Source: a virus (Duplodnaviria > Caudoviricetes). From it: 51,297 bases of DNA. This document shows, one piece after another, positions 4,828 to 46,907 of this stretch; position 1 is the first letter of the stretch; each line of letters opens with the position of its first letter. The position numbers and the translations under genes are program-made. The stretch spans positions 1 to 51,297 of IMG/VR virus record IMGVR_UViG_3300013111_000216; one strand, 5' to 3'. The notes under the pieces are model-generated. The model saw only the letters and a list, made by a program, of their open reading frames with translations. It was not told where the DNA came from and did no database searches.

Positions 4828-4842
4828 GTTACATTTTGTAAC
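4828..4842. promoter_or_regulatory. parS-like palindrome copy 1 (GTTACA-TTT-TGTAAC)
   Basis: Inverted repeat, intergenic; one of 10 copies. Confidence 0.7.
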
Positions 4843-4849
4843 ACTTCTT

Positions 4850-6535
4850 TTATCCGTTTAAGAATCCTGCCAATATACCGGCGGTTATTGCAACTGGAGC
4901 ACCGCCGGGTATCGCCGCCATTGCTGCTTCTGGCAACGCAGCTGCGGCCAAACCACCTCCGATACCACCACCGATCGTCTCAGCCATAGTTGGTTTCGTA
5001 CCCCCGACCGAAGATGTAGCACCCGCCATACCAGCCACGATGTTAGAATACTCCTGCCACATATCCATAGGATAACCCATAAAGTTATTTTCCCAAGCGG
5101 CTTTTTCTTTATACCACTTTATTATATCATCGTGATTAGACTTATCTCTCAGATATTGGTTATGAGTATATGTTTGATAAAGACCGGCCCACTGCGCTTT
5201 ATTCGACGCATAAGCCAAGCCGGTAGTCTTGACAAAGTCAGTTCCTGTCGTTCTACTATTAGCTTTATCCGCTACGAAACTCCTCAACGAGGTATCGAGA
5301 ATTCCTTTGAAAGCATTCAACCAATTTGAAACACCCTCGTCCCCCGACTTAACAAGATTATTAAACCCTGACGACTCATGCTGTGCGAGTGTCCCCAGTG
5401 CATTAGCATAGATCTGAGGGAACGTCAAGTATGCTTGCAACCAAGTTTTAAGGGCAGTATCTTTGAGTGCCGCAAAAGTTGAGAGATACTGCTGGAGATA
5501 ACTGAAGTAGTTCGAGATATACACTTGTAGTGCAGTAGTAAAAGTTGAGATAAACTGGTCGTGGGTTTTATAGAATATCTCTTTCTCTAACTCTGCCCGA
5601 AACTGGGTGATTTGCTTAGAATGATCACTCTCGATCGTAGCCATACCCACCCAGAAAGCCAGTCCGTTAGATGCATTCGCTTCAACAGCTGAACTAGCGA
5701 ATCTGTTCTTAGAACGATAAAACTCGTTTTCGAGGTTACTTTCAAAAGCATCAACGATGGAGTCAATCACAGTGTCATCAATAGCCGCCTGAGCAACTGT
5801 GAGAGCTTGGGTAAATGCCAGTTGGATATAGTTATCTGTGTCGTTCAAGAGTAGGTTAATTGCCTTAGTAACCCCCGAGTCCAACATAGTATCTGCGCGA
5901 CCGTCTGCTTCGTTGGTTGTAGTAAACAACTCTAGCCGTGAAGCATTCCCCGCCGCCAGACTAGCAGATATTATATCCGTATCTGCCTGAGTATTCGCAT
6001 CATCGAACACCGACTTAACCAACGGGTCATCATCTACCACGCCAAGAACACTACGCGCAGACGAGAGAAAACTCGTCATGAGTCCTCTGGAAGATGAACC
6101 GAAACCCGCTGATTGTGTTGCTTGAGCAAGACCAAAAATGAAGGCCGTTGCATCTATCTGTTCCATCCACTCTTCTGTATTATCAACCCAGGTTCCTACC
6201 TCGCCAGTATCAAAAGAGTCGATAAAATGTTGCTCGAGATAATCTCTCCAGTAAGCAAAAGCATAGCTTATGGAATTCACGACGTTGTTTAGATTATCTG
6301 AATTGAATCTAGATTGTGTACTAGACTCTTGTGGGCCTGCTCTACCCTCAATATCTGTGGTAGTAACATCTGTAGTAAACCCAGTTGTATCCCAAGGGTT
6401 GAAGGTATCACCTATTCTGTCGTAGACAAAATCATCCATCCAGTTCATACGAGTCAACAAGGTAGTCCGCAACGGATCACCCGCCGATCCCCACAACCAC
6501 GAGGAGACACCGCCTCCACTGCTTCCACCAGACAT
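4850..6535 (-). CDS. Putative DNA ejection/pilot protein
   Basis: Gly/Ser-rich N-terminus, helical body, Gly/Ala-rich hydrophobic C-terminus typical of podophage ejection proteins; gene position. Confidence 0.5.
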   Translation of the reverse strand: MSGGSSGGGVSSWLWGSAGDPLRTTLLTRMNWMDDFVYDRIGDTFNPWDTTGFTTDVTTTDIEGRAGPQESSTQSRFNSDNLNNVVNSISYAFAYWRDYLEQHFIDSFDTGEVGTWVDNTEEWMEQIDATAFIFGLAQATQSAGFGSSSRGLMTSFLSSARSVLGVVDDDPLVKSVFDDANTQADTDIISASLAAGNASRLELFTTTNEADGRADTMLDSGVTKAINLLLNDTDNYIQLAFTQALTVAQAAIDDTVIDSIVDAFESNLENEFYRSKNRFASSAVEANASNGLAFWVGMATIESDHSKQITQFRAELEKEIFYKTHDQFISTFTTALQVYISNYFSYLQQYLSTFAALKDTALKTWLQAYLTFPQIYANALGTLAQHESSGFNNLVKSGDEGVSNWLNAFKGILDTSLRSFVADKANSRTTGTDFVKTTGLAYASNKAQWAGLYQTYTHNQYLRDKSNHDDIIKWYKEKAAWENNFMGYPMDMWQEYSNIVAGMAGATSSVGGTKPTMAETIGGGIGGGLAAAALPEAAMAAIPGGAPVAITAGILAGFLNG

Positions 6536-6536
6536 T

Positions 6537-10666: not shown

Positions 10667-11503
10667 TTATCCTTTTCGTTTATGTCCTTGTGCAAGTACC
10701 GACTTAGCCAAACGACTAGCCGGTGTCTTTGGCAGATCCTTGTCCTTCCTCTTGGTTGCCCTTGAGCCATCAGGCTTCGGGTCCTTTGGATCTTTGCCGT
10801 CTTGGTTGTCAGCTTTGCGTGTCAGCCCTCGCGCGGCCCTAACACGGGTTTCAGCTTCTTCCAAGATTTTAGTCAATGTCCACTTTGGATTTTCTGCCCT
10901 GACCTTATTGGCCATCCACTCGACAAACTCCGCGTCGGGTTTGAGATCATCATTGCGGCTCCAGAAGTTATTATACTCATTCTGGACCGCAAACTGACCG
11001 GAGATAATCTTCGGTGTGACATCTTTGATGAAATCGACGACGTGTTCTCGAACGTTGTCGGCGATTGTTGGAAGGGCTCCTTCGAGATCCTTCCGAATGT
11101 AGGGGTCGACATCATCACTGAGTTCAACACCCTTCATTAGATCAATGGAAATGCCTTTCTTCTTATCCTGATCATCGTCCCCTTTTGAGGCTGACGATTT
11201 GTCGTCAGAACGAAGCTGAGCCAATTCCTCTTGCATCGCAGTCATGTCTTTCGACATTTCGTTGATTATACTCCAAGGGTCATCGCCCTTATCTTCTTTC
11301 TTCTTATCTTCGTTATTATCGTCTCCCGTTCCATTTTGTAACGCTGCTTTTTTGCTTTCATCGTCATTGTTGTTCTCGCCTTTGGCTTTATCAAAAGCCT
11401 TCGCGGCGTCTTCGTCTGACAAGTTTTTTGACACACCCTTGTCATCATCACCAGATTCATTATCTGGCTTATCATACATCTTCTGAAAGTTCAGTCTCAT
11501 CAC
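10667..11503 (-). CDS. Capsid scaffolding protein
   Basis: D/K-rich low-complexity helical protein immediately upstream of the capsid gene. Confidence 0.65.
   Translation of the reverse strand: MMRLNFQKMYDKPDNESGDDDKGVSKNLSDEDAAKAFDKAKGENNNDDESKKAALQNGTGDDNNEDKKKEDKGDDPWSIINEMSKDMTAMQEELAQLRSDDKSSASKGDDDQDKKKGISIDLMKGVELSDDVDPYIRKDLEGALPTIADNVREHVVDFIKDVTPKIISGQFAVQNEYNNFWSRNDDLKPDAEFVEWMANKVRAENPKWTLTKILEEAETRVRAARGLTRKADNQDGKDPKDPKPDGSRATKRKDKDLPKTPASRLAKSVLAQGHKRKG
11328..11342. promoter_or_regulatory. parS-like palindrome copy 2 (GTTCCA-TTT-TGTAAC), inside the scaffold CDS
   Basis: Matches consensus; encodes ALQNGT on the minus strand. Confidence 0.6.
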
Positions 11504-17085: not shown

Positions 17086-17455
17086 CGGTTACCTCTTTAT
17101 CAAGCGTAATGATCCCGCGTAGTATCCTGTAGATGTTATCACTAGAGTCATAAACCTCTAGATTGTAATAAGCTTTGTTGAAATCATAAGCTGCGGTCAC
17201 AGTCCCGTCGAGAGTGATATAGATGTCACCATTGGTCTTCGGGGCTGGAATAGAGATTAGCGTCGCATCGTCAACGGTGTTAAACTCGATCTGCGCCGTA
17301 GTGGAGTCCTTCCTCACTCGGGCAACCAAACGCGCGTTGTAATCTGTCAGGTCGATACTGGAACGTGCTCGATCGCGAATCTTAATGATCTTGTTCCAGG
17401 AAGCCCCCTGAGTGATTACTAAATTAGTCCTCGTTCCCCTCATCTTCCGTTCCAT
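17078..17455 (-). CDS. Small beta-sandwich virion protein
   Basis: QGASW..IDLTDY..YYNLEV..RILRG pattern common in phage Ig-like structural proteins. Confidence 0.5.
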   Translation of the reverse strand: MERKMRGTRTNLVITQGASWNKIIKIRDRARSSIDLTDYNARLVARVRKDSTTAQIEFNTVDDATLISIPAPKTNGDIYITLDGTVTAAYDFNKAYYNLEVYDSSDNIYRILRGIITLDKEVTDV

Positions 17456-18065
17456 TCTGTAACGCTAGTTGTTGTGCTCGTTCTTCGTCGTATCTCCTGG
17501 CGCGATCTTTGATCACGTCCATGTAATCTGCGTCGATTTTATTCGTGTTGTCGTTAATGTTGATGTTTTTATCAACTGTATGTCCACTTCTGTCCAGTAT
17601 CTTATCAGCGATAGAGGATCTCAGGCGAGGTTCTGTACTCTCATCACGCATTAAAGTCTCAAGAACCTCTAACGCTTCCGGAGTAAGTTGCCGAATACGC
17701 TCCCTGACGTCTGCAACGTCGGCGTCTGCGGCCCCGTTGAGCCACCTAACCTCCTCTTTCACCATCGGGAGACCTAAAATCCTGGAGACTGTTCCCTCGT
17801 GGAGGTTCATAATAGCGGCGATATCACGATTTTTTACCCCAAGAACATGATAACGTGCTATTTCCCGATGACGTGAATGTAGACGACTAATAGCATAGCT
17901 ATCAGGGGAGTCATTCATCGGGAGGGTCTCTTCCCGCTGATTGTGAAACTCCGGTTCTGGCCGAGATTGACCATTCCCAAAGTGATCTTCTAGAAAATTA
18001 CCGTTGTCGTTCATGAAGTTCTTCCTGCTAGACTCCTGATATAGTCCATTTCTAGATTTGGACAA
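17424..18065 (-). CDS. HTH protein, candidate terminase small subunit
   Basis: HTH KNRDIAAIMNLHEGTVSRIL plus ALEVLETLM..RSSIADKILDRSG, a TerS-like pattern; start probably 18014. Confidence 0.55.
   Translation of the reverse strand: MSKSRNGLYQESSRKNFMNDNGNFLEDHFGNGQSRPEPEFHNQREETLPMNDSPDSYAISRLHSRHREIARYHVLGVKNRDIAAIMNLHEGTVSRILGLPMVKEEVRWLNGAADADVADVRERIRQLTPEALEVLETLMRDESTEPRLRSSIADKILDRSGHTVDKNININDNTNKIDADYMDVIKDRARRYDEERAQQLALQNGTEDEGNED
17449..17463. promoter_or_regulatory. parS-like palindrome copy 3 (GTTCCA-TTC-TGTAAC), inside CDS
   Basis: Matches consensus; encodes ALQNGT on the minus strand. Confidence 0.6.
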
Positions 18066-21281: not shown

Positions 21282-21296
21282 GTTACAAAATGTAAC
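21282..21296. promoter_or_regulatory. parS-like palindrome copy 4 (GTTACA-AAA-TGTAAC)
   Basis: Inverted repeat, intergenic. Confidence 0.7.
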
Positions 21297-23828: not shown

Positions 23829-23843
23829 GTTACATTTTGGAAC
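23829..23843. promoter_or_regulatory. parS-like palindrome copy 5 (GTTACA-TTT-TGGAAC)
   Basis: Matches consensus. Confidence 0.65.
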
Positions 23844-24412: not shown

Positions 24413-24680
24413 CGTAACATTGTAACATTTGTAGCACCCCATATTCCCATTGGACAACATTCGGAAGTGGATAGAACTTTAGCTATTTGTAGTGATACTT
24501 GACATTGGATATTTTATGTGAAAAAAATAACTAAAGAATATAATAACATCTACTTCCCTAAATTCTCTTGTTTGGTTCAAAGTGTGGTTTTGATGCCCAA
24601 GGGGAACAGGAGCGGTTACGTTTGTTACAAATGTTACGTTTTGATAGTTGGTGTTGTTCACTACCGTTCCAAATTGTAAC
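24413..24680. other. Candidate replication origin: AT-rich core flanked by oppositely oriented GTAAC/GTTAC repeats, plus palindrome copy 6 (24666-24680)
   Basis: CGTAACATTGTAACATTTGTAGC on the left and GGTTACGTTTGTTACAAATGTTACG on the right of an AT-rich, apparently non-coding stretch. Confidence 0.4.
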
Positions 24681-28159: not shown

Positions 28160-28489
28160 TTGCCTGTTCCTTTTAACTACCACAGTGAGCATAAATTGGA
28201 CTACACACAACATTTCGATGAAAGATTCCAGAAACATCTAGGATCGTCACCAACGCGATCCTTTGTACGGCGAGCTCTTTTCATCGGCAAATCGTTGGCT
28301 AAACAGATCCCTTATAGAGATCAGGAGAAGTTCTCCTGTACTATTCAATATGAGGGATCTTTTTATCAGTTTGTCTATTCACCTGATACTAAGAAGCTGA
28401 TCACGATGTGGCCGATGCAGGAACAAACCAACGAGGACACGGAGGATGTTCAGGAAGATTCGGAAGTTACTAGACCACCGTCAGTGTAG
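28160..28489 (+). CDS. Hypothetical protein, possible RelE/DUF4258-like RNase fold
   Basis: YTQHFDERF at the N-terminus and FVYS...KLITMW at the C-terminus. Confidence 0.4.
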   Translation: MPVPFNYHSEHKLDYTQHFDERFQKHLGSSPTRSFVRRALFIGKSLAKQIPYRDQEKFSCTIQYEGSFYQFVYSPDTKKLITMWPMQEQTNEDTEDVQEDSEVTRPPSV

Positions 28490-28649
28490 AAAGTGTGGGA
28501 AGTGGTCAGGGACTGTGATTCACACGGTACCCGGCGAACACGTAGGAGACAAACCGATCAATGTTTGCTGGACTTGTTTAGAAGCCCACTTCGGCTTCGG
28601 CAAGTTCAATACCTACGTCAAAGATAGGAAAAAGTGGTGGAAATTGTAA
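28446..28649 (+). CDS. Small Zn-ribbon protein
   Basis: CRKC...CWTC; GGAGG RBS. Confidence 0.55.
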   Translation: MFRKIRKLLDHRQCRKCGKWSGTVIHTVPGEHVGDKPINVCWTCLEAHFGFGKFNTYVKDRKKWWKL

Positions 28650-28655
28650 ACTATC

Positions 28656-28670
28656 GTTCCATATTGTAAC
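28656..28670. promoter_or_regulatory. parS-like palindrome copy 7 (GTTCCA-TAT-TGTAAC)
   Basis: Matches consensus, intergenic. Confidence 0.65.
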
Positions 28671-28741: not shown

Positions 28742-30283
28742 ATGTCTACTTTTAATTACTACGTAGATTGGGAGGCCGCACCTGGCGGCGACGGTTCTAT
28801 CGGCACACCGTTCCAGACAATCGACGAGGCGCGTGCCGAAACAGGAGCAAAGATACTTGACACGACAATCGGTGCGGGTGATCTTGTATACTGGCAGATC
28901 GCCCCTGGAACATATCGTGAGGAAGTTTCAACATCTAATTACAAAGTTGCAGATGTTGATCTTACTATACGAAGCACGGGCTCTGCTCCGGTCATTGTCA
29001 AAGCCTCTGAAGTTGAGAGCTCTTGGACCGCCGATACAGGGTCGATATACTATTGTACGTGGACCAACGATTGGTGGGTTTCCCTCGACGATGAAGGACT
29101 AATCTACGGCGGTGTCCAGTATGACGCCGGATGGGATGCTTGGTGGTCTTCCGTTGACGGCCCTTGGTATTATATGCTAGAGGCTGCTTACGACACTACG
29201 GTTGGAGACGCAAGGGCGCAGATGTTATCTCGAAGAGAAGGAGTATTTGTCAATGAGACTACCCCGCTCCTTCAGGTTCTTTCAAAAGACGATATGGTGG
29301 CCGGGACTTTCTTTGTAGACCAGACGGCGGACCGCATCTATGTTTGGCTCGCAGACTCGTCCGACCCAGCTAATCACACAATGGAACTGACGTCTCGCGA
29401 CAGATGTTTTGACTTCGACAACATGGCAGACATAAGGTTCGAGCGAATCAACACGCTCCACTCTGGTCTCCGTGGCTTCGACGTTATTACATCGACTAAC
29501 GTGAGATTCACACGGTGCCGTGCTGAGTGGAACGTAAACATGGGTGTGCAGACAAACAACTGTAGCTCCATCCAGCAGATTAGGTCTCACTTTGATAACA
29601 ACGGAGATCTTGGTTGGTCCTGTGCATTTTGTGGAGAAGGAGGAACCCTGACGTGCGATTGTCTCAGTGCTAACTACAACAACTGGCATGGCGCGAACGC
29701 AGATGCAGGCAACTGGAGAGTAGCAGGCATTAAGTTCTACGCTGTTGCTCATGTGACTATTAATAATTTGACTGCGATTGGCAACTACACCTATGGCCTA
29801 TGGTTCGACCGTTGGTGTTGTGACATCGAGATTAACCACCCGTACCTTGTTAACAACTACGGGCCGGGATTGTTCTGGGAGATTTCACCAGGACCGTGCG
29901 TGATCAACTACCCGACTATCACCGGGAACGGTCTGCACGATGCGATACAACCAGCTCTAACCACACACGACTGCGGAGTGCTAATCAACTCTGCGTCGAA
30001 CATAACTATGAACTACCCCAAGATATGGGGCAATCACGGGAAACAGTGGTACATAGAAAACAGCGGTAGACAGGCACGCCTCTGGGGTGAATACGGGGAG
30101 CTGGACGAATACTCGGCCGCTATCAACGTAACCGATCACGTTATCAGGCGCAAACTTGACGACGGCGAACAATTCATAGAAACATACGGTTCCAACTCAG
30201 TCTTATCAGCCTATTGGAACCTCTTAACGGTCACCCCGTCTCGGGCAGAAACAGAACTGGAACCCGAACTTGACCAAGGATAA
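28742..30283 (+). CDS. Right-handed parallel beta-helix protein (pectin lyase-like, DUF1565-type N-terminus)
   Basis: YYVD...GDGS...PFQTI..A and IAPGTYRE, then Asn-ladder repeats (N...G...) with GIKF and GLWFD. Confidence 0.8.
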   Translation: MSTFNYYVDWEAAPGGDGSIGTPFQTIDEARAETGAKILDTTIGAGDLVYWQIAPGTYREEVSTSNYKVADVDLTIRSTGSAPVIVKASEVESSWTADTGSIYYCTWTNDWWVSLDDEGLIYGGVQYDAGWDAWWSSVDGPWYYMLEAAYDTTVGDARAQMLSRREGVFVNETTPLLQVLSKDDMVAGTFFVDQTADRIYVWLADSSDPANHTMELTSRDRCFDFDNMADIRFERINTLHSGLRGFDVITSTNVRFTRCRAEWNVNMGVQTNNCSSIQQIRSHFDNNGDLGWSCAFCGEGGTLTCDCLSANYNNWHGANADAGNWRVAGIKFYAVAHVTINNLTAIGNYTYGLWFDRWCCDIEINHPYLVNNYGPGLFWEISPGPCVINYPTITGNGLHDAIQPALTTHDCGVLINSASNITMNYPKIWGNHGKQWYIENSGRQARLWGEYGELDEYSAAINVTDHVIRRKLDDGEQFIETYGSNSVLSAYWNLLTVTPSRAETELEPELDQG

Positions 30284-35816: not shown

Positions 35817-35820
35817 AAGC

Positions 35821-35835
35821 GTTACATTTTGTAAC
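35821..35835. promoter_or_regulatory. parS-like palindrome copy 8 (GTTACA-TTT-TGTAAC)
   Basis: Inverted repeat, intergenic. Confidence 0.7.
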
Positions 35836-35845
35836 AGGTCTTACC

Positions 35846-37018: not shown

Positions 37019-37389
37019 ACGAAGGAAAAGACATACCAGAATCTGTGTCCGTCATAGATTTTGCCGGACAAAGCTATGCTGTCCCAACTAGTATAGCCGC
37101 CGCTTTTCTCCAAACCTGCCAAGCTGTTGCCCCTGCGAGAGCTGGTGTGCAGGTTGTCTACTACACCACAGAATTCGACTACAACCGATTCTCTATTCGT
37201 CCGTGCTTAGTCGTCGACGAAAAAGATGATCACATAAAAAGGTTCCACGGCAACCCGTTAGGTATCCCACCCGTACCGGAACCGAAGCAAACTGAACTAG
37301 ACTTGGAGGACAAACCCGATGATCAAATTCACGACGCCAGTGAACCACGTGGTCCAGCCACATCGGACGTGGGAGATACTGGACAGTAG
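37015..37389 (+). CDS. Hypothetical protein
   Basis: ATGA coupling. Confidence 0.5.
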   Translation: MNEGKDIPESVSVIDFAGQSYAVPTSIAAAFLQTCQAVAPARAGVQVVYYTTEFDYNRFSIRPCLVVDEKDDHIKRFHGNPLGIPPVPEPKQTELDLEDKPDDQIHDASEPRGPATSDVGDTGQ

Positions 37390-38347: not shown

Positions 38348-38439
38348 CCCCGATACCGGGGGCGGCTTTCAATAGAATACGGGGTCTATTGAGAGAGGCT
38401 AGTTGTCCTCCGGCCAGCTCCCGGTCATAAGGAGAACCC

Positions 38440-38793
38440 GTGAACCAAAAGAAATTCGACATTAAGGATAGCAAAGGAAACCCTGTCGGAGTCGGATACA
38501 TCCCTGTGTTCCCGATGATGATGTTCATGGTCTGTAAGTGCGGCGGAGAGTTTCGACCAAGCCAACTACAGCCATTTGAAGGCAAAATCCAACAGGGGCT
38601 TCCCGCTCCTATCAACTACTTGTGTAACAAGTGTCAAGTGTCCTGTCTCACAGAAGAGATTATGCCCAGGTTGACACATGTTAACTCAGAACAACTAGAG
38701 GCTATGCGTGAACAACACAACAAACCCACCCCAGACGGTACAGAGCCAGGTGCAAGCTTCGACGGATTCGGAACAGAACCGGAAGAAGTATGA
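38440..38793 (+). CDS. Zn-ribbon hypothetical protein
   Basis: CKCGG...CNKC; AGGAG RBS. Confidence 0.55.
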   Translation: MNQKKFDIKDSKGNPVGVGYIPVFPMMMFMVCKCGGEFRPSQLQPFEGKIQQGLPAPINYLCNKCQVSCLTEEIMPRLTHVNSEQLEAMREQHNKPTPDGTEPGASFDGFGTEPEEV

Positions 38794-39577
38794 AGAACAG
38801 CGAGAGCGCCTTAAAGCCGCTTACACTGAAACCGCTCAAAACGATCGGTGCGCGTTCATCTTGTACGGCCCTAAAGGTTCCGGAAAAACTCGTACAGCAG
38901 CTACTGCACCGGGCCCAATCTGGTTTCACTCGTTCGATCCTCAGGGTACTGCTACCCTCCGTAAAGTCTATGCCGACGATATCGCCAGCGGCAGGATCGT
39001 CATTGATAATTCGTTTGAGAAAGAAATCGTCACTCGTGGCATCCAGCTTACTGGTGCTCAACAATGGGACAGATGGTTACAAACTGTCAACCAAATGTAC
39101 AGGGACGGTGTTTTCAACTGCATACGAACATACGTGTTGGACTCCCTATCGTTTGTGGCCGAGGCGTTGATGAACAAGGAGATCCAACGGAAGAAACGTA
39201 AAGACGGACACCCGGCGATCCAAGACTGGCTTATGTGCCAGAACATCCTCAAAGAACAACTCGTCCGCCTAGTCAACCTCCCCTGCTATGTTATCGTAAC
39301 AGGACACGGCGAGATCGAGAAGGACGAAAAAGAAGGAGGACTTGTCGGCTCTCTATACACAGTCGGCAAACGATCAAAAGTAACTATCCCCCCGGTCTTC
39401 TCGGAGATGTACTATGTTGAACGTACCACATCCGGAGCAAGGATTCATACTCGCCCGTACAAAGCGTTTGAAGCGGGAACAAGAATCGGGGCAGACACTT
39501 TCGCGGCTACAGAAGAAGCAGATATTACGAAACTACTCGAAAAGGCAGGATACGAGTGGCAAGACAAGGAGTTCTAA
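38708..39577 (+). CDS. AAA_24/Sak4-like P-loop ATPase (recombination)
   Basis: Walker A YGPKGSGKT, Walker B YVLDSLS, VIVTGH; sits between exonuclease and SSB-like gene. Confidence 0.8.
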   Translation: MNNTTNPPQTVQSQVQASTDSEQNRKKYEEQRERLKAAYTETAQNDRCAFILYGPKGSGKTRTAATAPGPIWFHSFDPQGTATLRKVYADDIASGRIVIDNSFEKEIVTRGIQLTGAQQWDRWLQTVNQMYRDGVFNCIRTYVLDSLSFVAEALMNKEIQRKKRKDGHPAIQDWLMCQNILKEQLVRLVNLPCYVIVTGHGEIEKDEKEGGLVGSLYTVGKRSKVTIPPVFSEMYYVERTTSGARIHTRPYKAFEAGTRIGADTFAATEEADITKLLEKAGYEWQDKEF

Positions 39578-39578
39578 C

Positions 39579-39815
39579 ATGGCTGTAGACAACTGGGCAC
39601 ACCGGAGCACTACAATGAGGTGTCAGACTTGTATGTGGTGGGTAGAAAAAACGCCAAGAGGATCTGATTACAGACCTATCGGGCGTTGCCGTCACAGATC
39701 CCCAACCGTCAAAGGGTGGCCAGCAGTATTCCCTGACGACTGGTGTGGTGATCACAAGATTGACGAAACCAAACTACCCGGACGCCCTGCCATTCCATCA
39801 AAGGAGAAAATCTAA
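39579..39815 (+). CDS. Small Cys-rich protein
   Basis: CQTC...GRCR...WP.V...DWCGDH. Confidence 0.6.
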   Translation: MAVDNWAHRSTTMRCQTCMWWVEKTPRGSDYRPIGRCRHRSPTVKGWPAVFPDDWCGDHKIDETKLPGRPAIPSKEKI

Positions 39816-39816
39816 C

Positions 39817-40041
39817 ATGGCACTTGGCGTAGTTGACATACTCAACGTGATCAAACACACGAAGAAACCAAAACGAGTAACCGCCGCCCCCTGGGAGCAC
39901 TCCCGTCGGGCGATACTCAAATCCTTTGTCGAATTACTCGAAGAAAAACGAGTAACCATCCCGGCTGACGCCCTCTCGTTGCCCGAGGATGAAGAAACAG
40001 AAGAGGGAGAAGAAAAGAAGGAGGACGAATCCAATGGATAA
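39817..40041 (+). CDS. Hypothetical protein
   Basis: AGGAG RBS. Confidence 0.5.
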   Translation: MALGVVDILNVIKHTKKPKRVTAAPWEHSRRAILKSFVELLEEKRVTIPADALSLPEDEETEEGEEKKEDESNG

Positions 40042-40582: not shown

Positions 40583-40597
40583 GTTCCATTTTGTAAC
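40583..40597. promoter_or_regulatory. parS-like palindrome copy 9 (GTTCCA-TTT-TGTAAC)
   Basis: Intergenic, just after a GGGGAAGC/GCTTCCCC hairpin, upstream of the ParB-MTase operon. Confidence 0.65.
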
Positions 40598-40612: not shown

Positions 40613-40972
40613 ATGAACAAGAATCCCCGCCACAGGGCATCTACACCAGCCGTCAGGTTGGCCTTCGATCTCTCCGAAGAGATGTATAACGACCTCAGAG
40701 ACCACGTACCGAAAGGTTTCACACGTAAGATATTCCTTCATGTGATTGATAAAGTAATCTTGACAATCAAGAACGAAGGCGATGTAGGGTTAACCACCCT
40801 CTACAACGGCCACTTCGATATTAACACCACTAAATGTTATGTCGAAGAGCGAACCAAGCTCGTCGGGTTGATGCAAAAGGTAGCGGAAGAAATACCTGAC
40901 GGCAAAGCCAAGGACGATCTTCATTCGCTGTTCGGGATACTGTTAAAAATGGAGGGCGTTGATGAAGCTTGA
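40613..40972 (+). CDS. Hypothetical protein, possible ribbon-helix-helix
   Basis: RLAFDLSEEMYNDL beta-alpha start. Confidence 0.5.
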   Translation: MNKNPRHRASTPAVRLAFDLSEEMYNDLRDHVPKGFTRKIFLHVIDKVILTIKNEGDVGLTTLYNGHFDINTTKCYVEERTKLVGLMQKVAEEIPDGKAKDDLHSLFGILLKMEGVDEA

Positions 40973-41234
40973 GGGAATGAGAAACTCTATTTGTGATCTA
41001 ACCCCTGCGACCGCAATCGCCATTATTCTCGAACAAAGACGCGAGCGCATGGAGTTTACAATAGCCACATCAAAACGCAACTACACCAAAGCGCAGAAGA
41101 CGCGCATCAACAAGTCTGTCAAGAAAAAGGAAGCCTTCCGGGATCTAGCTGCTTCCCTTGATGAAGATAAACTACGTGAACTGTTAAAGAAAAGATTCGG
41201 AGACGACAGTGTTCCAGAAGCCAACGCGGACTGA
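40959..41234 (+). CDS. Hypothetical basic protein
   Basis: ORF in operon. Confidence 0.55.
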   Translation: MMKLEGMRNSICDLTPATAIAIILEQRRERMEFTIATSKRNYTKAQKTRINKSVKKKEAFRDLAASLDEDKLRELLKKRFGDDSVPEANAD

Positions 41235-42564
41235 TACGATTGAAAGAAAAACAATCTTTGTGGGGGAACGTGCTAGACAGGATATCGAAGATAAGGAATT
41301 ACAAAACTTGGTTAAGTCCATCAGATCGGTCGGATTGATCGAGCCGTTGGCTGTAGTGGAAGGAGGCCCAGATGGCCACAAATATACCCTTCTGGCTGGA
41401 GGCAGGAGGATCATCGCTTGCGACAAACTCGACTACGACGAGATACCAGTTAACATATACCCGAAAGATATCGACGAAGAACAGCGACAAACCATCGAGC
41501 TCCACGAAAACCTGCACCGCGTTGACCTATCGTGGGCCGAAGAAAAACTTATCAAAGCCAAGATCCACGAGCTACAGCTCAAGGTCAAGGGGAAAAAATC
41601 TGCCACCAATCCCGAGGGTGCGTCAATGGCAGAGACGGCGAAGGAGCTGAAGACCTCCAAAGCCGACGTCTCCCGTGCCGTGCAAATGGCCGAGGCGTTG
41701 AAGGCCCACCCTGAGTTGGCCAAAGCTAAGACCGAGAAGCAGGCTCGGCAGATGTTGGATCGTATGGAACGTGAGGTTCGTGCCAAGAAGATTGCACAGG
41801 AGGTTAAGGAAGAATCCTCTGCGGGCGGCAAGTTCAAGAAGATGGTTATCTCGTCCTACGTCACCGGGAACGCCCTCGAAGGGTTATCCCACGTCGCAGA
41901 GAACACTGCTGACTTGATGCTTATTGACCCTCCGTATGTGATCGACTTTGCCAAACGCCGCGACGAGACCCGCAACCATGATATTGACTACACTGAGTGG
42001 GCTCACGACGATATGCTACAGAATATACCCGCCGTCCTTGCGTATGCCAGCAAGATACTCAAGCCGGAGGGTTGGCTAATACTATGGTTCGCCACAACTT
42101 ATCAACAATTCCTATACGATATGCTCGGTAAGTTCAAATTCGCTGCGAATACAATGCCGGCGATCTGGTACAAAGGAGGTCAAGGTGAAACTATGCGCCC
42201 TGACATGGCCCTCGCACCAACCTACGAGCCTTTCATCTATGCGCGCCACGCTGGTGCGAAGGCAAAGTTGGTTAAGAAGGGCCGCTCGTGTGTCTTCCAC
42301 TTCAAACCTGTTCCACCAGCGAAGAAGATCCACGAGACCGAGAAGCCTATCGAACTCATGGAGGAAATCATCGCGACTTTCTCCGGAGTTCACGACCGCA
42401 AAACTATCGTTTCTCCTTTTCTTGGCTCTGGGAACGATATTCTGGCTGGAGTTAATCACGGACACCGTGTTATCGGTTGGGACCTCAGCGAGAAACAGTC
42501 TGAACTCTTCGCGGATCGCGTGATGTCCTCGATTCACCCGTTTAGGAGTTATGATGAAGGTTGA
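41209..42564 (+). CDS. ParB-like CTPase/HTH domain fused to a beta-class DNA methyltransferase
   Basis: GLIEPL, AGGRRIIA and ENLHRVDL (ParB); HTH SMAETAKELKTSKADVSRAV; DPPY, HETEKP and SPFLGSG (MTase). Confidence 0.9.
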   Translation: MFQKPTRTDTIERKTIFVGERARQDIEDKELQNLVKSIRSVGLIEPLAVVEGGPDGHKYTLLAGGRRIIACDKLDYDEIPVNIYPKDIDEEQRQTIELHENLHRVDLSWAEEKLIKAKIHELQLKVKGKKSATNPEGASMAETAKELKTSKADVSRAVQMAEALKAHPELAKAKTEKQARQMLDRMEREVRAKKIAQEVKEESSAGGKFKKMVISSYVTGNALEGLSHVAENTADLMLIDPPYVIDFAKRRDETRNHDIDYTEWAHDDMLQNIPAVLAYASKILKPEGWLILWFATTYQQFLYDMLGKFKFAANTMPAIWYKGGQGETMRPDMALAPTYEPFIYARHAGAKAKLVKKGRSCVFHFKPVPPAKKIHETEKPIELMEEIIATFSGVHDRKTIVSPFLGSGNDILAGVNHGHRVIGWDLSEKQSELFADRVMSSIHPFRSYDEG

Positions 42565-43030: not shown

Positions 43031-43237
43031 ATGATAAAGCAAGACTACGATTCGTCGACTCAAGAGACTCTAGTGTTCGACGTCCACTGTGACCGTTGTA
43101 CTCACTCGAAGACATACCGAGTAGAGAGCTGGAACGTCTTAGTTGCTTTCATGGCACGGGACGACTGGTTGAACTACAAAGACGCTGACGAATGGAACCA
43201 TCACTGTTCGGAGTGTAAGAAAGAGACACTTTCATGA
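43031..43237 (+). CDS. Small Zn-finger protein
   Basis: CDRC...HHCSEC. Confidence 0.55.
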   Translation: MIKQDYDSSTQETLVFDVHCDRCTHSKTYRVESWNVLVAFMARDDWLNYKDADEWNHHCSECKKETLS

Positions 43238-45696
43238 ACCTAGTACCCGGTCAAGGCCCACTTGATGCACAGATCTGTTTCGTTGGTGAGGCACCCGGCC
43301 ACAAGGAAGCGGCGGTAGGTATACCATTTATCGGTCCCGCTGGTTCGCTTCTTTTCGACCAGCTAGCTCGTGCCGCCGGTATCGTGCGTAACCAGTGTTA
43401 TATCACCAACGTCGTAAAAACTCTACCCCATAAGAGCATAAGTAGCTTCGTCGATCTAAGCAAAAAGCAGGCGGTTGAATCCGACGCCTTTGTAGAATTC
43501 AAGAGTATTCTAAAAGAAGAGCTTGAACAGATACGACCAAACGTGGTTGTGGCTGTCGGTAATGTACCGCTATGGGCCTTGACAGGTTTGAAGGGGATAA
43601 CTAAGTGGCGGGGTTCTATATTGGAATCCACCCTGGTACCGGGTCTCAAGGTTATTCCAATCATCCACCCGGCGTCCGTCCTTCGGGGTATGTACAAGTG
43701 GCGCCACTACATACAACGTGATCTAGCGAGGGTCTTGTCGGAATCTGTCTCCCCTGACATCATATCTCCCAAACACGACTTGATCCTCGCTCCTGACTTC
43801 ACCACATCGATGGAGTTTCTCGAGGATTGCAAAAAGGCGAAGGAGGTGGGCTTTGATATTGAAGTCATGCACGATCACATATCCTGTTTCAGCTTCTCAA
43901 TCGACGAGCGAACAGCAATTTCTATACCTATCCAATGTAAAGCCGGGCACTACTTCGATCCTGACCAAGAGACAGCTATTATCACTACGATGGGAGATGT
44001 TCTTGAGAATCCGGACATCGAGAAGGTCATACAGAACGCAATCTTTGACTCAGGTTTTGTATACAATGATTATGGGATAGTAACCAATAATATGTTCTGT
44101 ACAATGGTGGCACATAAGATGCTCTACCCTGAGTTTGAAGCAGGGTTGGACTTCATGACCTCTGTCCTAACCGAGGTTCCATACTACAAGGACGAGGGTA
44201 AGATATGGGGTAAACTAGTATGGGAAGAACGGGACTTCTGGCGCTACTCTGCGTTGGACTCCGTAGTCCTTCTCCCCATCAAACACAAACTCGAAGCACA
44301 GTTGGACCGAGTGGGTATTCGAGATTCCTTCGATATCAGAATGGCGCAGTTGCACCCACTACACGCCATGACATTCTACGGAGTGAGGACAGATCACAAT
44401 GGGCTTCAAAACGAACGCGATAAGTTGGAGGGGCAAATCGCCCGGAACCAGCAGACCCTCGACGATCTTGTCGGACGACCTCTCAATCCAAATTCCACGA
44501 AACAGCTTCAAGACTACTTCTATAACGAACTTAATATCAAACCGTACATCAATCGAAAGACTAAGCGACCAACCACAGACGCTACGGCACTGGTGCGACT
44601 TAGCACAACTCATGGAAGAAAAGAAGCCTCAACCATCCTCGATATCCGACATGATAGAAAGTTACTGTCAACCTATTACGATGCAAAGTTAGACGACGAT
44701 GGACGTACGCGTGGTAACTACAACCCGGCCGGCACACGGTCCGGAAGGCTTTCATCATCTAAGACGATCTTTGGTACCGGTCTTAATATGCAGAATATCC
44801 CACCTGGGATGGACAGGTATCTCGTTGCAGATGATGGGTATGTTATTATCTCTATCGACCTCTCCCAAGCCGAAAACCGTGTGGTTGCATATATCGCGCC
44901 GGAGCAGAAAATGCAGGCCGCCTTTGAAAGAGGAGAGGATATTCACGCTCTCACTGCATCGGCCATTTTTAAGATACCTCCTGATCAGATAAGCGACGAA
45001 CCCGGATCTGCGCCGTTCGCTGGAGGGAAGTATTCACAAAGGTTCTGGGGAAAGAAGGGGAACCATGCGATCAACTACCACGAAGGGCACGTCACATTCG
45101 CGCTCCAGAATGAGATGCCTCAAAAAGAGGCGAAACTTATTCTTGACTCGATTCTCGCGATGTATCCGGGACTACCTAACTACTGGGCTTGGATTGAACG
45201 TGCTATCCGTTCAGACAGAACTCTTATCGACTGCTTCGACAAGAAGAGAATCTTCTGGGGAGATCCTCGCGATAACGATACGATGCGAGAGGCTTACTCA
45301 TTTATACCACAATCTACTGTGCGACAGATCATGGATAGATGGGGAATGCTCTATGTCTACAACGAGCCAGAGCTCAGCGAAGTCATCCAAATCCGCGACA
45401 AACACGACTCGATGGATCTCCTTTTCCCACTCAAGCATGGCTGGCGTTGGATCGCTGAGCGAGTATTTCTCATCACCCGTAACCTTGAGCAGCCCCTTTT
45501 CTATCGAGGAGCAGAATGGACAATACCTGCTGATGTCTCCATAGGTATGAACCTTGCCAAGAGGGATAAAGACAATCCTATGGGGCTCAAGGAGTGTACC
45601 AATTTCAAGTATGGCTCCGGTACTGGCCCTATGGCCGCTGCGTTAGAAAAAGATGCCACCGAACCACTAAAACTATTCGAAGATCTCTATGTTTGA
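43234..45696 (+). CDS. polA: Family A DNA polymerase with N-terminal family-4-like uracil-DNA glycosylase and 3'-5' exonuclease domains
   Basis: UDG motifs GEAPG, PFIGPAG, YITNVVK, IHPA; exonuclease FDIE, QNAIFD, YSALD; polymerase GRLSS, NMQN, DLSQAE, RxxxKxxNH, HDS. Confidence 0.9.
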   Translation: MNLVPGQGPLDAQICFVGEAPGHKEAAVGIPFIGPAGSLLFDQLARAAGIVRNQCYITNVVKTLPHKSISSFVDLSKKQAVESDAFVEFKSILKEELEQIRPNVVVAVGNVPLWALTGLKGITKWRGSILESTLVPGLKVIPIIHPASVLRGMYKWRHYIQRDLARVLSESVSPDIISPKHDLILAPDFTTSMEFLEDCKKAKEVGFDIEVMHDHISCFSFSIDERTAISIPIQCKAGHYFDPDQETAIITTMGDVLENPDIEKVIQNAIFDSGFVYNDYGIVTNNMFCTMVAHKMLYPEFEAGLDFMTSVLTEVPYYKDEGKIWGKLVWEERDFWRYSALDSVVLLPIKHKLEAQLDRVGIRDSFDIRMAQLHPLHAMTFYGVRTDHNGLQNERDKLEGQIARNQQTLDDLVGRPLNPNSTKQLQDYFYNELNIKPYINRKTKRPTTDATALVRLSTTHGRKEASTILDIRHDRKLLSTYYDAKLDDDGRTRGNYNPAGTRSGRLSSSKTIFGTGLNMQNIPPGMDRYLVADDGYVIISIDLSQAENRVVAYIAPEQKMQAAFERGEDIHALTASAIFKIPPDQISDEPGSAPFAGGKYSQRFWGKKGNHAINYHEGHVTFALQNEMPQKEAKLILDSILAMYPGLPNYWAWIERAIRSDRTLIDCFDKKRIFWGDPRDNDTMREAYSFIPQSTVRQIMDRWGMLYVYNEPELSEVIQIRDKHDSMDLLFPLKHGWRWIAERVFLITRNLEQPLFYRGAEWTIPADVSIGMNLAKRDKDNPMGLKECTNFKYGSGTGPMAAALEKDATEPLKLFEDLYV

Positions 45697-46891
45697 CACT
45701 CGGGTTTTACCTGATTGGATTGACAGTTATTTAGAATACGTAGAGAATACAGAACCACCTAAGCTTTTCAATAAGTGGGTAGCCATCTCTACAGTAGCCG
45801 CCGCGTTACAGCGTAAAGTATACGCTCGTTTTGGGACAGATTTGTATTTCTATCCTAATATGTATATCGTCTTAGTTGGCCCATCTGCCACGCAGAAATC
45901 AACTTCGATGAAACCAGCCCGGCGGCTACTTCAAGATATCGGCGTCCCGATAACAGCGGAGGTCATAACCCGTGAAGCCCTCATCCGAAGATTTGCTAAG
46001 ACTGAGTCTGCAGACATCAGCCCCGAATCTGTTGTCGTCATTAACCATAGTAGTCTCACCGTCCATTCCAGCGAACTCACTGTGTTTTTGGGATTCAACA
46101 ACCCTCAGTTCCTCCGGGATCTCTGTGACTTCTATGACTGTCCCAATCAGTGGCAATACGAGACTAAAACCCAAGGAGTTGACAAGCTCTCGAACATGTA
46201 CTTTAACCTTGTCGGAGCCTCTACCGCTGAATCACTTCAACAGGCTCTTTCAGCAGATGCTATCGGAGGTGGGCTTACTTCCAGAATGATCTTCATCTAC
46301 GCCGAACAGAAAGACAAAGTCGTCCCTTTCCACGAAATCACAGAAGAAGAAAAGGAGATGGAGAAAGCCCTACTAGGGGATCTCCGCTCTATCCACCGCA
46401 TGATGGGTGGTGTGCAGGTCAGTCCGGAGTTCAGAGAGTTATACACGGGCTGGAGTTTAGAAACTGAAGAAAACCCGCCGTTTCTAGATGAACGATTTCA
46501 CGGTTATAATGGCCGGCGAAGGAACCATCTGGTCAAACTCGCAGTGATATCGTCCGCCAGTCGCGGCGGGTCTCTTATCTTATCAGCAAAGGACTTCGAG
46601 CGTTCACTCAATTGGTTAGTGGATGCCGAGCGAGATATGCAACGCGCCCTTGCTGGAGTGGGACGATCTGAGCTTGCCTTCCTTATTGCTAAAGTCAGAA
46701 TGATTATCGAAAACTTCGACCGTAAAAACATCCCGCTGAAATTTACTGATATCCTTCGAAGATGTATGGATGATGCACCTGAGCCCGATCTCAGGAAGGT
46801 TGTCATAACCCTGGAACGCGTCGGGGAGATCAAAACCGAACGTATCAAAGGCTCCGCTGATTGGCGTATCGAGGTTGTTGTAAACGAGTGA
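45689..46891 (+). CDS. DUF3987/YfjI-type P-loop helicase
   Basis: YPNMYIVLVGPSATQKST, SEL, LCDFYD, GGGLTSRMIF. Confidence 0.75.
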   Translation: MFDTRVLPDWIDSYLEYVENTEPPKLFNKWVAISTVAAALQRKVYARFGTDLYFYPNMYIVLVGPSATQKSTSMKPARRLLQDIGVPITAEVITREALIRRFAKTESADISPESVVVINHSSLTVHSSELTVFLGFNNPQFLRDLCDFYDCPNQWQYETKTQGVDKLSNMYFNLVGASTAESLQQALSADAIGGGLTSRMIFIYAEQKDKVVPFHEITEEEKEMEKALLGDLRSIHRMMGGVQVSPEFRELYTGWSLETEENPPFLDERFHGYNGRRRNHLVKLAVISSASRGGSLILSAKDFERSLNWLVDAERDMQRALAGVGRSELAFLIAKVRMIIENFDRKNIPLKFTDILRRCMDDAPEPDLRKVVITLERVGEIKTERIKGSADWRIEVVVNE

Positions 46892-46892
46892 T

Positions 46893-46907
46893 GTTACAAT
46901 ATGGAAC
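46893..46907. promoter_or_regulatory. parS-like palindrome copy 10 (GTTACA-ATA-TGGAAC), between convergent stop codons
   Basis: Fills the 17-bp gap between 46891 and 46909. Confidence 0.7.

Follow-up and report, generated by a model that had tools for sequence, protein, structure and literature searches.

Dispersed parS-like dyads as probable cognate sites of a ParB-DNA methyltransferase fusion protein in a marine phage

Dyad Sites in the Phage Genome

The window, which is the whole stretch of 51,297 nucleotides that was analyzed, holds the complete and circular genome of a marine phage, and as the virus record is complete with a 119-bp terminal overlap, the circle was taken to measure 51,178 bp. 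The phage encodes a holin, an amidase and a full structural module. No near-identical phage was found in a search of GenBank. Among public sequencing runs, four DNA runs belonging to one study contain the stretch, which may derive from them, and no RNA runs were listed.

In a first-pass annotation of this DNA, ten copies of the palindrome GTTMCA-N3-TGKAAC had been reported. Exactly ten matches were recovered at the positions given below, where the chance expectation was 0.01 (mean of 100 dinucleotide shuffles, none of which reached ten), an excess that marks the sites as real and under selection. The site family is sharply bounded by mismatch count, with ten copies at no mismatch, none at one mismatch and 13 at two mismatches (6.0 expected). 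An AT-rich spacer had been claimed for all copies; nine of them have spacers composed of A/T only, and the copy at 17449 has TTC. The distances between sites, measured round the circle, are 6500, 6121, 3833, 2547, 837, 3990, 7165, 4762, 6310, and 9113 bp, so that the earlier description of a spacing of mostly 4–7 kb is roughly right.

The dyads have no assigned strand. Site 1 (core 4828..4842, full dyad 4822–4848) occupies exactly the 27-bp interval that separates two leftward genes and is placed 6 nt before the start of gene 3869..4822. Sites 2 (11328..11342) and 3 (17449..17463) lie within coding sequence and both encode ALQNGT, as had been noted; the former occupies codons 54–59 of a scaffold-like gene (10667..11503), in an acidic low-complexity linker, and the latter lies near the 3′ end of the small-terminase gene, where it encodes part of the C-terminal tail of that protein and also spans the start codon (ATG, 17455) of the ORF that follows. 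Site 4 (21282..21296) is intergenic and adjoins a minus-strand hairpin resembling a terminator (21269–21246), site 5 (23829..23843) is intergenic and approximately 22 nt upstream of an ATG with GGAGG before it, site 6 (24666..24680) is found among the small ORFs of the early region, and site 7 (28656..28670) is intergenic between 28446..28649 and 28742..30283. Site 8 (35821..35835) is in a 29-bp gap that directly precedes the DNA ligase gene (ATG at 35846). Site 9 (40583..40597) is separated by 15 nt from the downstream start codon (ATG) of gp40613 (40613..40972, plus strand), a conserved small protein without a family that is a possible partner or second reader. Site 10 (46893..46907) lies between a DUF3987 primase/helicase-like gene and a giant gene, whose convergent stops at 46891 and 46909 leave a 17-bp gap that is filled by the site, in agreement with the earlier description. 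The proposed binder of these dyads is a ParB-methyltransferase fusion protein (ParB-MTase; 41209..42564, plus strand), having a ParB_N domain (residues 21–103), a putative helix-turn-helix (HTH; approximately 138–166) and a methyltransferase domain (235–433).

Structure of the Dyad

The logo of the ten copies revealed that every core is the center of a 27-bp dyad, A-S-T-n-n-Y-GTTMCA-WWW-TGKAAC-R-n-n-n-S-T. In the 5′ flank the conservation is A 8/10, S 10/10, T 7/10, and Y 10/10, and in the mirror flank R, S, and T are each present in 10/10 copies. A strand-specific motif such as a nick or priming site was also considered and was rejected, the conserved 3′ flank being the mirror of the 5′ flank in the logo. 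The likeness to parS that had been proposed was borne out, with the half-site yGTTMCA aligning in register to TGTTTCA, the half-site of parS, and one additional central base pair. In seven of the ten sites GTTCCA is combined with TGTAAC, or GTTACA with TGGAAC, giving a mismatch when folded, and the complementary pairing GTTCCA..TGGAAC occurs at 0/10 sites. The bases separating the inner from the outer dyad element are likewise non-complementary.

The ParB-Methyltransferase Protein

The ParB and methyltransferase domains first assigned to 41209..42564 were upheld by profile searches, which detected ParB_N (PF02195) at 43.0 bits (cut-off 26.3) and N6_N4_Mtase (PF01555) at 45.4 bits (cut-off 26.7). 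The ParB nucleotide motifs, which we take to be box II (GxRR) and box III (ENLxR), are intact as had been stated, with G64, R67, E100, N101, and R104 invariant in 18 sequences including outgroups and R66 invariant within the clade (15 members). Using a clade profile, the N-terminal 120 residues were found to be homologous to Noc, Spo0J, and ParB (E 1.7e-20 to 1e-17), and the best PDB sequence matches of this part of the protein were to Noc (7nfu and 7ng0). The match to KorB was weak (E 3e-8) and confined to the N-domain. The methyltransferase is of the beta class of N6/N4 enzymes with motifs DPPY and FxGSG; its residues D240, P242, F404, G406, S407, and G408 are invariant, and its closest solved relatives are the DpnA-type adenine methyltransferases (5hek, E 1.3e-22) and CcrM. 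It stands in place of the canonical ParB C-terminal dimerization domain, which is absent, and no domain follows it.

The HTH gave no significant match in Pfam or the PDB, and its assignment is supported by the co-variation of residues 141, 150, and 151 with dyad bases. Profile alignment to Spo0J of T. thermophilus was collinear and non-significant (score −1.4) and aligned the residue-151 column with the R of GKARS, and in HMMER pairwise alignments to Noc and Myxococcus ParB the ParB HTH falls approximately 20 residues upstream of our assignment. With these HTH matches being non-significant and the HMMER register discordant, the equivalence of K151 to R173 of ParB rests on a pattern alignment, one non-significant profile match and the co-variation described below. 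The absence of ParA noted in the first-pass annotation was confirmed by six-frame searches of the whole genome with PF13614 and PF01656 (0 matches; controls positive in 14/14 genomes), and six-frame searches found no tyrosine integrase.

Dyads in Related Phages

For the wider family, IMG/VR yielded 232 portal-related loci. All 19 whole-genome relatives examined possess their own, different dyad in 6 to 22 copies. G000 and 18/19 of the whole relatives were above all six Markov nulls for dyads, and the 19th relative, a Desulfofustis phage, carries GTYCCAANTTGGRAC in eight exact copies (0 in 100 shuffles). The motif of the window itself has 0 exact copies in four relatives, where just chance matches with one mismatch were seen. 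In some relatives the entire 12–14-nt dyad arm is complementary.

The positions of the sites recur across relatives while the sequence of the sites changes. Of 245 family sites 150 are intergenic, though intergenic DNA makes up 6.5%, and the dyad center lies a median of 29 nt upstream of a start codon. For the capsid gene, 14/20 genomes have a site no more than 200 nt beyond its 3′ end, as do 8/18 for the DUF3987 gene and 7/20 for the ParB-MTase gene, with recurrent slots also present before PolA and TerS.

The ParB_N-HTH-N6/N4 methyltransferase is a core gene of this family. A test of whether the palindrome and this gene occur together had been proposed. Within the family the gene is present in 17/17 relatives searched, and outside of it 12 phages or loci keep ParB-MTase without long dyads. 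As the gene is present in all 17 of these relatives, a presence/absence test cannot discriminate within the family.

Co-variation of Protein and Dyad

To relate protein residues to dyad bases, a per-column MI scan of 342 ParB-MTase columns was conducted on 57 aligned relatives, in place of sliding-window partial-Mantel scans. In the latter the HTH did not stand out overall, its best window ranking 77/1268 and 33/2367 with the whole motif and 3/2367 with the inner half only. Their top windows were located in TerL, PolA, and the capsid protein, and these are read as noise from deep subclade structure, the scans not being decisive.

In the MI scan, residue 151 (K151 here, the first residue of the recognition helix) ranked 1/342 for base −6 (z 11.8; next 9.3), first for base −4 and second for base −7, with HTH residues 141 and 150 first and third for base −7. 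A simple rule describes base −6, with His or Arg corresponding to G, Gln to A, and Lys or Pro to T. G at −6 was found with H in 9/9 and R in 5/5 cases (14/14 together), A with Gln at residue 151 in 5/7, and T with residues other than His, Arg, or Gln in 34/36, while GT was paired with K in 17/18 and P in 6/7 cases; these counts follow the removal of six loci beforehand by judgement, among them L243, in which H at 151 is accompanied by an AT-rich cluster that, if real, would break the code. In a phylogeny based solely on the methyltransferase domain, base −6 has undergone at least 15 changes among the 57 relatives, and the rule is obeyed in 12/13 phylogenetically independent pairs. A matching residue-base rule is reported for ParB R173 and Noc Q158 in excerpts of PMC7383237, according to which R173 is invariant among parS-specific ParB variants, half-site position 1 being G, and A is the base preferred there by Q173.

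Proposed Role of the Dyads

Given the co-variation, the family-wide nature of the trait, the absence of ParA and integrase, and the rival HTH protein being a small terminase subunit, binding of the dyads by the ParB-methylase is well supported by co-evolution and is considered probable. The ten 27-bp dyads would be the cognate parS-like sites of a ParB-NTPase/HTH/DNA-methyltransferase fusion, which as a dimer would contact each inner half-site (yGTTMCAw) with one recognition helix. K151, as first residue of the helix, would read base −6/−7 from the specificity position occupied by R173 in ParB and Q158 in Noc.

Since the sites are at most 9.1 kb apart on the circle and neither ParA nor an integrase was found, the dyads would most likely be nucleation or loading sites which hold the fused methyltransferase on phage DNA, from where it may be released as an NTP-gated clamp. 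The phage genome would be methylated in cis, giving restriction protection or a self mark, and the enzyme would not be spent on host DNA. Such a system would be private to each phage lineage, as each relative has changed its site and helix residue together. We lean slightly toward this statement as a whole, namely that the dyads are cognate sites of ParB-MTase and load it for methylation in cis. The load-and-slide self-methylation put forward in the first-pass annotation is held tentatively, at somewhat less than even confidence, its main rival being KorB-like regulation. Against our explanation stand the twelve outgroup phages or loci which have ParB-MTase and lack long dyads, with gp40613 and gp34819 matching the presence of dyads better, as well as the replacement of the ParB C-terminal dimerization domain by the methyltransferase and the median position 29 nt upstream of start codons, which suits a regulator.

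A more speculative and rather doubtful extension is that of a private “zip-code” epigenetic system, in which the NTP-gated clamp, dimerized via its methylase, would spread from the dyads and mark only DNA bearing its own code, with gp40613 reading the outer element and gating or locking the clamp. Because helix residue and base have switched together repeatedly (15 or more changes across the 57 relatives), the code would diversify in the manner of immunity specificity. Neither co-infecting relatives nor the host chromosome would carry the mark, and both could be distinguished from self, for example by the PD-(D/E)XK nuclease of the phage.

Alternative Explanations

The alternative that survives best, though we consider it unlikely, is that ParB-MTase binds the dyads as a KorB-like global regulator with a mainly transcriptional role (roadblock, long-range silencing or activation), the methylase being secondary or acting at the site only. 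The outer dyad element, the strongly intergenic placement just ahead of start codons and the adjacent conserved small protein, none of which appears in the first-pass annotation, leave room for a regulatory reading. It is favored by the intergenic excess of the family sites and their distance to starts, by the recurrence of slots behind the capsid gene and in front of PolA and TerS, and by the terminator-like hairpin abutting one site, and the conserved small protein beside the gene could be a clamp-locking partner. For KorB itself there is precedent in OB sites and clamp-locking partners (excerpts of PMC11790492, PMC13584720, and PMC12409273). However, sigma-70-like promoters were not above chance between 20001 and 40000 (25 found, 21.5 expected), there is no room for a promoter where the dyad fills the gap, as at site 1, and sites also occur at a convergent junction and within coding sequence. 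In a compact genome, moreover, short gaps may be the sole place fitting a 27-bp dyad, and a regulatory role leaves the methylase fusion in all 57 aligned relatives unexplained. As candidates in their own right, sigma-70 promoters and intrinsic terminators were rejected for the dyads, just one terminator-like hairpin adjoining a dyad in 20001–40000. No repressor or regulator families were recognized by Pfam or PHROG in 30 small proteins of the early and middle regions.

It is a good deal less probable that another phage protein (gp40613, gp34819, or an unrecognized early protein) is the principal binder and ParB-MTase is unrelated to the dyads. The distribution of gp40613 speaks for this, the protein being present in 20/20 family genomes (19 by HMM, G012 by eye) and 9/9 clade loci and absent from 13/13 outgroups without long dyads, 12 of which keep ParB-MTase; nevertheless, this pattern amounts to one evolutionary event. 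That of gp34819 is similar, but it was not found in 3/9 clade loci. The outer dyad element also needs a reader, and the N-terminus of gp40613 looks like a ribbon-helix-helix strand by its sequence, with RHH_1 and MetJ clusters of the Atlas lying near it at 0.85 (a lead only). In relatives with coordinates compared, gp40613 is 0.2–1.7 kb upstream of ParB-MTase. Against its being the principal binder, gp40613 belongs to no Pfam, PHROG, or PDB-sequence family (none of its 572 homologs has a domain, and sequence searches of the PDB with gp40613 and gp34819 gave nothing meaningful), and its putative DNA-facing strand, KPRFSFE[IV]S, is near-identical across genomes with three different inner motifs. 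When gp40613 was put through the MI scan as a comparison, its best column for an inner base, a subclade marker, reached z 8.6, compared to 11.8 for residue 151 of ParB-MTase.

Dispersed centromere sites are found in the phage-plasmid N15. That the dyads are the partition centromeres of a phage-plasmid, serving segregation by dispersed parS sites, would accord with a ParB-type protein and parS-like half-sites, yet it is very improbable for a phage without ParA (PF13614, PF01656), a tyrosine integrase in six frames, the ParB C-terminal domain or any recognized repressor, and with a holin, amidase and full structural module. Equally improbable is a role at the RNA level, in which the dyads would be mRNA hairpins acting as terminators, processing sites or stabilizers. 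Palindromes between genes and after the capsid gene would suit such hairpins, as would the fully complementary arms of some relatives, but the arms are mismatched in 7/10 sites of the window (C:U or A:G in the stem, the compensating pair never being seen) and this reading is disfavored for that reason. In addition, the bases between inner and outer elements do not pair, a T-run pattern is absent, and it is sequence and not structure alone that is conserved within each genome.

Least credible of all is binding by the HTH protein at 17424..18065, which had been named as a possible binder at the outset: it does have an HTH (GerE, 22.5 bits, below cut-off) and is present in 17/20 family genomes, but it is a small terminase subunit by best match (phrog_2538, E 6e-8), as its ortholog in the Desulfofustis phage is annotated, G005 and G006 share the same recognition helix in this protein despite their differing dyads, and its HTH shows no co-variation, with partial correlations negative or null (best HTH rank 573/2367 windows).

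Relation to Known Systems

The fusion of a ParB-CTPase fold to an N6/N4 methyltransferase is among the commonest ParB fusions in phages. A 2025 survey (PMC12704722), in the sections available, describes the same PF02195 and PF01555 architecture as frequent in phages and prophages, and those sections give neither DNA sites nor function for such fusions, suggesting “perhaps anti-defense.” They also report that the ParB fold can bind ATP or GTP in place of CTP and that some ParB-methyltransferase fusions bind ATP and not CTP, with no result given for an N6/N4 fusion. To the content of these sections the present work adds candidate cognate dispersed dyads and a residue-base code. No paper tying ParB-N6/N4 methyltransferase fusions to dispersed sites was found in a literature search, and the dyads described here provide the first likely target sites for this common and unexplained phage protein. 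Should loading and methylation prove true, the virus would be aiming an epigenetic mark at its own DNA, and methylation would be a new payload of the ParB clamp beside partition (ParB), membrane tethering (Noc), and silencing (KorB).

The phage system resembles chromosomal ParB-parS in the N-terminal NTP-binding fold with GxRR and ENLxR, in an HTH (predicted here) placed on a palindrome with the GTTMCA half in register with the parS half, and in the Arg-to-G rule at the position equivalent to R173. It differs in the odd central base pair and outer element of its 27-bp dyad, in having ten sites that span the replicon whereas parS clusters near the origin, and in lacking ParA and bearing a DNA methyltransferase in place of the C-terminal dimerization domain. 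Noc and its NBS sites provide a further parallel, Noc being a ParB paralog with site-specific nucleation and a different payload (PMC7383237, PMC8429893, both in excerpt) and sharing the Gln-to-A rule at the corresponding helix position. The payload of Noc is however membrane binding, and it is a protein of the host chromosome, whereas here an enzyme domain and a phage genome are concerned. KorB of RK2 is also a ParB-family NTPase with many palindromic operators (OB) over a mobile element of ~50–60 kb, and a sliding clamp with small partner proteins would be a further feature in common (excerpts of PMC11790492). Unlike the phage protein, with its fused methylase and no ParA, KorB has a C-terminal dimerization domain, an IncC/ParA partner and a shown role as repressor.

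The stoperators of Cluster A mycobacteriophages are similar in being short dispersed sites (up to ~30), mostly in short intergenic gaps (PMC6550527, PMC9283540), with a motif that drifts with the binding protein between relatives. These are asymmetric 13-bp sites of temperate phages, oriented with transcription and bound by a monomeric immunity repressor, whereas the dyads of this phage are symmetric, no integrase or repressor was found and the candidate reader is a ParB-type HTH. The ParB-dependent thymine dioxygenases of phages likewise combine a ParB-like protein with a post-replicative DNA-modifying enzyme (excerpts of PMC13229309); in the present phage, by contrast, the ParB part carries a putative HTH, forms one fusion protein with the enzyme and is matched by candidate cognate sites.

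Genome organization

The window genome is that of a tailed phage, in which genes for the major head protein, portal, large terminase, holin and amidase were recognised, together with an ATP-dependent ligase, a PD-(D/E)XK nuclease, an AAA_24 ATPase, a DUF3987 protein and a family A DNA polymerase (43234-45696). In this polymerase, a UDG-like domain of the uracil-DNA-glycosylase superfamily (PF03167, E 8e-25) is fused at the N-terminus, before the 3'-5' exonuclease domain. The window is a complete virus record. As its two ends share the same 119 bases and a giant open reading frame spans the end junction, the genome is a circle of 51,178 bp. This frame (minus strand, 46909-51178 joined to 1-3869) encodes 2712 amino acids with a DNA methyltransferase domain in the C-terminal part (phrog_67, E 8.5e-46). 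The window thus encodes another protein with a methylase domain, a giant one, whose gene converges on the replication genes; relatives have it too (20 of 20 by HMM).

The gene of principal interest, that of the ParB-MTase (41209..42564), encodes a ParB_N domain (residues 21-103) and an N6_N4_Mtase domain (residues 235-433), both scoring above the curated cut-offs. The first-pass annotation had recognised no ParA, and indeed PF13614 and PF01656 were unmatched in every frame of the window genome, in which no tyrosine integrase was found in any frame either.

Five copies of the palindrome GTTAGG-N4-6-CTAAC (22839, 22864, 22891, 22922 and 22961) were also found between 22839 and 23043. Directly 3' of these, on the plus strand, lie tandem sigma-54-type -24/-12 elements (TGGCAC-N5-TTGCA), three exact (22976, 23001 and 23028) and one mismatched (22938), with no other exact match in the window. 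The arrangement looks like enhancer sites with RpoN promoters for the rightward early/replication genes.

The ten dyad sites of the window

The pattern GTTMCANNNTGKAAC was matched exactly ten times, at 4828, 11328, 17449, 21282, 23829, 24666, 28656, 35821, 40583 and 46893, as originally annotated. The chance expectation of about 0.01 was reproduced in 100 dinucleotide shuffles (mean 0.01, none reaching ten). Allowing up to two mismatches gave 23 matches: beyond the ten exact copies, no site differed at a single position and 13 differed at two (approximately 6 expected for two), so the site family is sharply bounded. The sites are separated by 837 to 9113 bp around the circle. Alignment of the flanks showed the 15-mer to lie at the centre of a longer dyad of 27 bp, A-S-T-n-n-Y-GTTMCA-WWW-TGKAAC-R-n-n-n-S-T. 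The observation of ten sites is confirmed in a stronger form than first stated.

At seven of the ten sites a GTTCCA arm is paired with TGTAAC, or GTTACA with TGGAAC, and the complementary pairing GTTCCA/TGGAAC occurs at none of the ten. The bases intervening between inner and outer blocks are likewise non-complementary. These mismatched arms and intervening bases disfavour a hairpin and argue for recognition of the dyad as duplex DNA, presumably by a dimeric protein.

A strong terminator-like hairpin of eight pairs, seven of them G-C, followed by a T-rich tail, is present on the minus strand at 21246-21269, 13 nt from the fourth site.

Dyads in related phages

A portal-protein profile search of IMG/VR identified 232 related loci, and whole relatives were fetched (17 large genomes, G001 and a Desulfofustis phage). 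The window motif was absent from the four relatives scanned for it, and each of the whole relatives has a motif of its own. Dyads found among the relatives were TTAAAT-N-ATTTAA in G001 (9-14 copies), CGTTTAAT-N-ATTAAACG in G013 (about 20), TGGTAAA-N3-TTTACCA in G006 (8-10), GTTTCGAT-N-ATCGAAAC in G018 (9-10) and GTYCCAA-N-TTGGRAC in the Desulfofustis phage. In a single pipeline, the window's own genome and all but one of the 19 whole relatives exceeded all six first-order Markov simulations; for the exception, the AT-rich Desulfofustis phage, the dyad was shown by a separate count (8 copies vs. 0 expected). Dyads are a trait of the family; in all of them the centre is odd and each half-site is bipartite, with an outer block at about -14 to -9 and an inner block at -8 to -1.

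Across 20 genomes, 150 of 245 clustered sites were intergenic, compared to 6.5% of the DNA; as clustering was permissive and the longest possible reading frames were used, the figure of 94 'in-gene' sites is probably too high. The median distance from the dyad centre to the start codon that follows it is 29 nt. The positions of the sites recur across genomes despite their differing sequences. Counting sites up to 200 nt outside a gene end, the 3' end of the capsid gene was occupied in 14/20 genomes, the 3' end of the ParB-MTase gene in 7/20, the 5' end of PolA in 8/18 and the 3' end of the DUF3987 gene in 8/18, the latter being the convergent junction that holds the tenth site of the window.

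TATATA-type repeats, each a single local run, were also noted in G018 (45259-45306), G020 (15174-15226), G002 (31303-31321) and the loci L198, L199, L203 and L204, and perhaps represent a replication origin.

Co-variation of the dyads with the ParB-MTase

The ParB-MTase gene belongs to the core set, as all 17 relatives searched have it. Presence or absence is therefore uninformative within the family, so co-variation was used instead. Two sliding-window partial-Mantel scans of core proteins against the whole motif placed the best ParB HTH window at 77 of 1268 and 33 of 2367, rising to 3 of 2367 when only the inner half-site was considered; the small-terminase HTH gave no signal, and these scans were not decisive.

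Mutual information with permutation z-scores was then calculated between every ParB-MTase column and every dyad position for 57 non-redundant relatives, of which 19 were whole genomes and 38 were loci carrying four or more sites. Six other loci were excluded by judgement; one of these, L243, would break the code described here should its AT-rich cluster prove genuine. The outer positions -11 and -12 correlate with columns everywhere because they divide the family into two deep subclades. The inner positions gave a specific result. For base -6, residue 151, at the start of the presumed recognition helix, ranked first of 342 columns (z 11.8; runner-up 9.3), and it again ranked first for base -4, while the top three columns for base -7 were residues 141, 151 and 150, all within the presumed helix-turn-helix. 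In the contingency table, G occupies -6 with His (9/9) or Arg (5/5) at residue 151, A occupies it with Gln (5/7), and G-T is found at -7/-6 with Lys (17/18) or Pro (6/7). G005 and G006, whose ParB-MTases share 81% identity, form a natural pair, having Pro with the dyad TGTAAAA and His with TGGTAAA, respectively. A tree based solely on the methylase domain requires a minimum of 15 changes at base -6, and 12 of 13 phylogenetically independent pairs differing at this base obey the rule. Judged from these sequence comparisons, the dyads are shown to be real and under selection, and to co-evolve with the putative recognition helix of the ParB-MTase, which probably binds them.

Two other binders were considered. 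The small protein gp40613 (40613..40972) is present in 20/20 family genomes and 9/9 clade loci and absent from 13/13 outgroups without long dyads, 12 of which keep a ParB-MTase. In the relatives for which coordinates were compared, its gene lies 0.2-1.7 kb upstream of that for the ParB-MTase. The N-terminus of gp40613, in most relatives PRFSFEISEEQ, resembles a ribbon-helix-helix strand, an assignment that no family search confirms. This protein could be the real dyad binder; against this, its strand is unchanged where the inner motif changes, and its best column against the inner bases, a marker of subclades, had a z of no more than 8.6. It could alternatively read the outer dyad element or lock a clamp formed by the ParB-MTase. 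The HTH protein at 17424..18065, previously suggested as a binder, is very unlikely to bind them, since its best match is a small terminase subunit (phrog_2538, E 6e-8), its ortholog in Desulfofustis phage LS06-2018-MD01, the closest relative with a name, is annotated as small terminase, and co-variation is absent.

Two further proteins without a known family are conserved, gp34819 (34819-35310) in 20/20 genomes, being absent from all 13 outgroups, and one at 21301-22011 in 16/20.

Comparison with ParB and Noc

The N-terminal 120 residues of the ParB-MTase are clearly ParB/Noc-like (E 1.7e-20 to 1e-17), and the nucleotide motifs are intact as annotated, with the arginines and the ENLxR block invariant. 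Within the ParB/Noc family, four residues set specificity. R173 of Caulobacter ParB is described as contacting parS, with Arg at 173 invariant among parS-specific variants and Gln173 variants preferring adenine at half-site position 1, one of the two positions (1 and 6) at which parS and the Noc site differ (PMC7383237). A pattern register sets G-K-S-R-S-x-V-A-N of ParB against K-T-S-K151-A-D-V-S-R of the ParB-MTase, and T. thermophilus Spo0J gave the same register by a collinear, non-significant profile match; HMMER pairwise alignments put the ParB HTH about 20 residues upstream of the assigned one. If the register holds, the code seen here (Arg/His with G, Gln with A) would be the known rule at the known position.

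Possible role of the sites

ParB-CTPase/N6N4-MTase fusions are described as frequent in phages and prophages and as having no known function, and the fold as able to bind CTP, ATP or GTP (PMC12704722). Related accounts describe a thymine dioxygenase activated by a phage ParB (PMC13229309), M.EcoGIX-type single-strand methylases of plasmid leading regions, with ParB mentioned as a neighbour only (PMC7736820), and stoperators (PMC6550527). ParB-MTase fusions linked to dispersed cognate sites were not found in the literature searched.

The first-pass annotation had proposed that the sites load the ParB-MTase, which then slides and methylates phage DNA. This is supported in part, with the binder of what is a ParB/parS kind of system well supported and the mechanism tentative. 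The enzyme would bind the dyads as a dimer, and the dyads would nucleate or load it onto phage DNA; loading is suggested by the conserved nucleotide-binding motifs, the intact methylase motifs (DPPY, FxGSG) and the spread of the sites, every base lying within about 4.6 kb of one. Loading is also favoured by the absence of a ParA or integrase that would point to partition, and by the position of some sites where a promoter is not needed. That methylation is targeted in cis by spreading from the dyads is a tentative proposal, somewhat short of an even chance. The main rival is a regulatory role resembling that of KorB, a CTP clamp with OB sites (PMC11790492). Such a role would fit the placement of sites shortly before start codons and behind the capsid gene, and we consider it rather unlikely, at about one chance in four.

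Outgroups

A sister clade centred on G002 (G002, L195, L197, L198, L200-L203 and L205) shares only the replication module with the window. It keeps the ParB-MTase with a conserved HTH and has no long dyads. All nine members are enriched in GCGCGC/CGCGCG hexamers, approximately 3- to 34-fold over the dinucleotide expectation (151 vs. 4.4 expected in G002), an excess found nowhere in the window's clade; these hexamers may represent the same principle with a short site.

In a distant relative, Vibrio phage vB_VspS_VS-ABTNL-3 (L176), whose ParB-MTase has 23% identity, paired GAATTATGTAATTG-like motifs 23-24 bp apart were observed in intergenic gaps (23198/23223, 32132/32156, 39921/39945 and 42179/42203), one of these gaps being the convergent junction that follows its giant gene.
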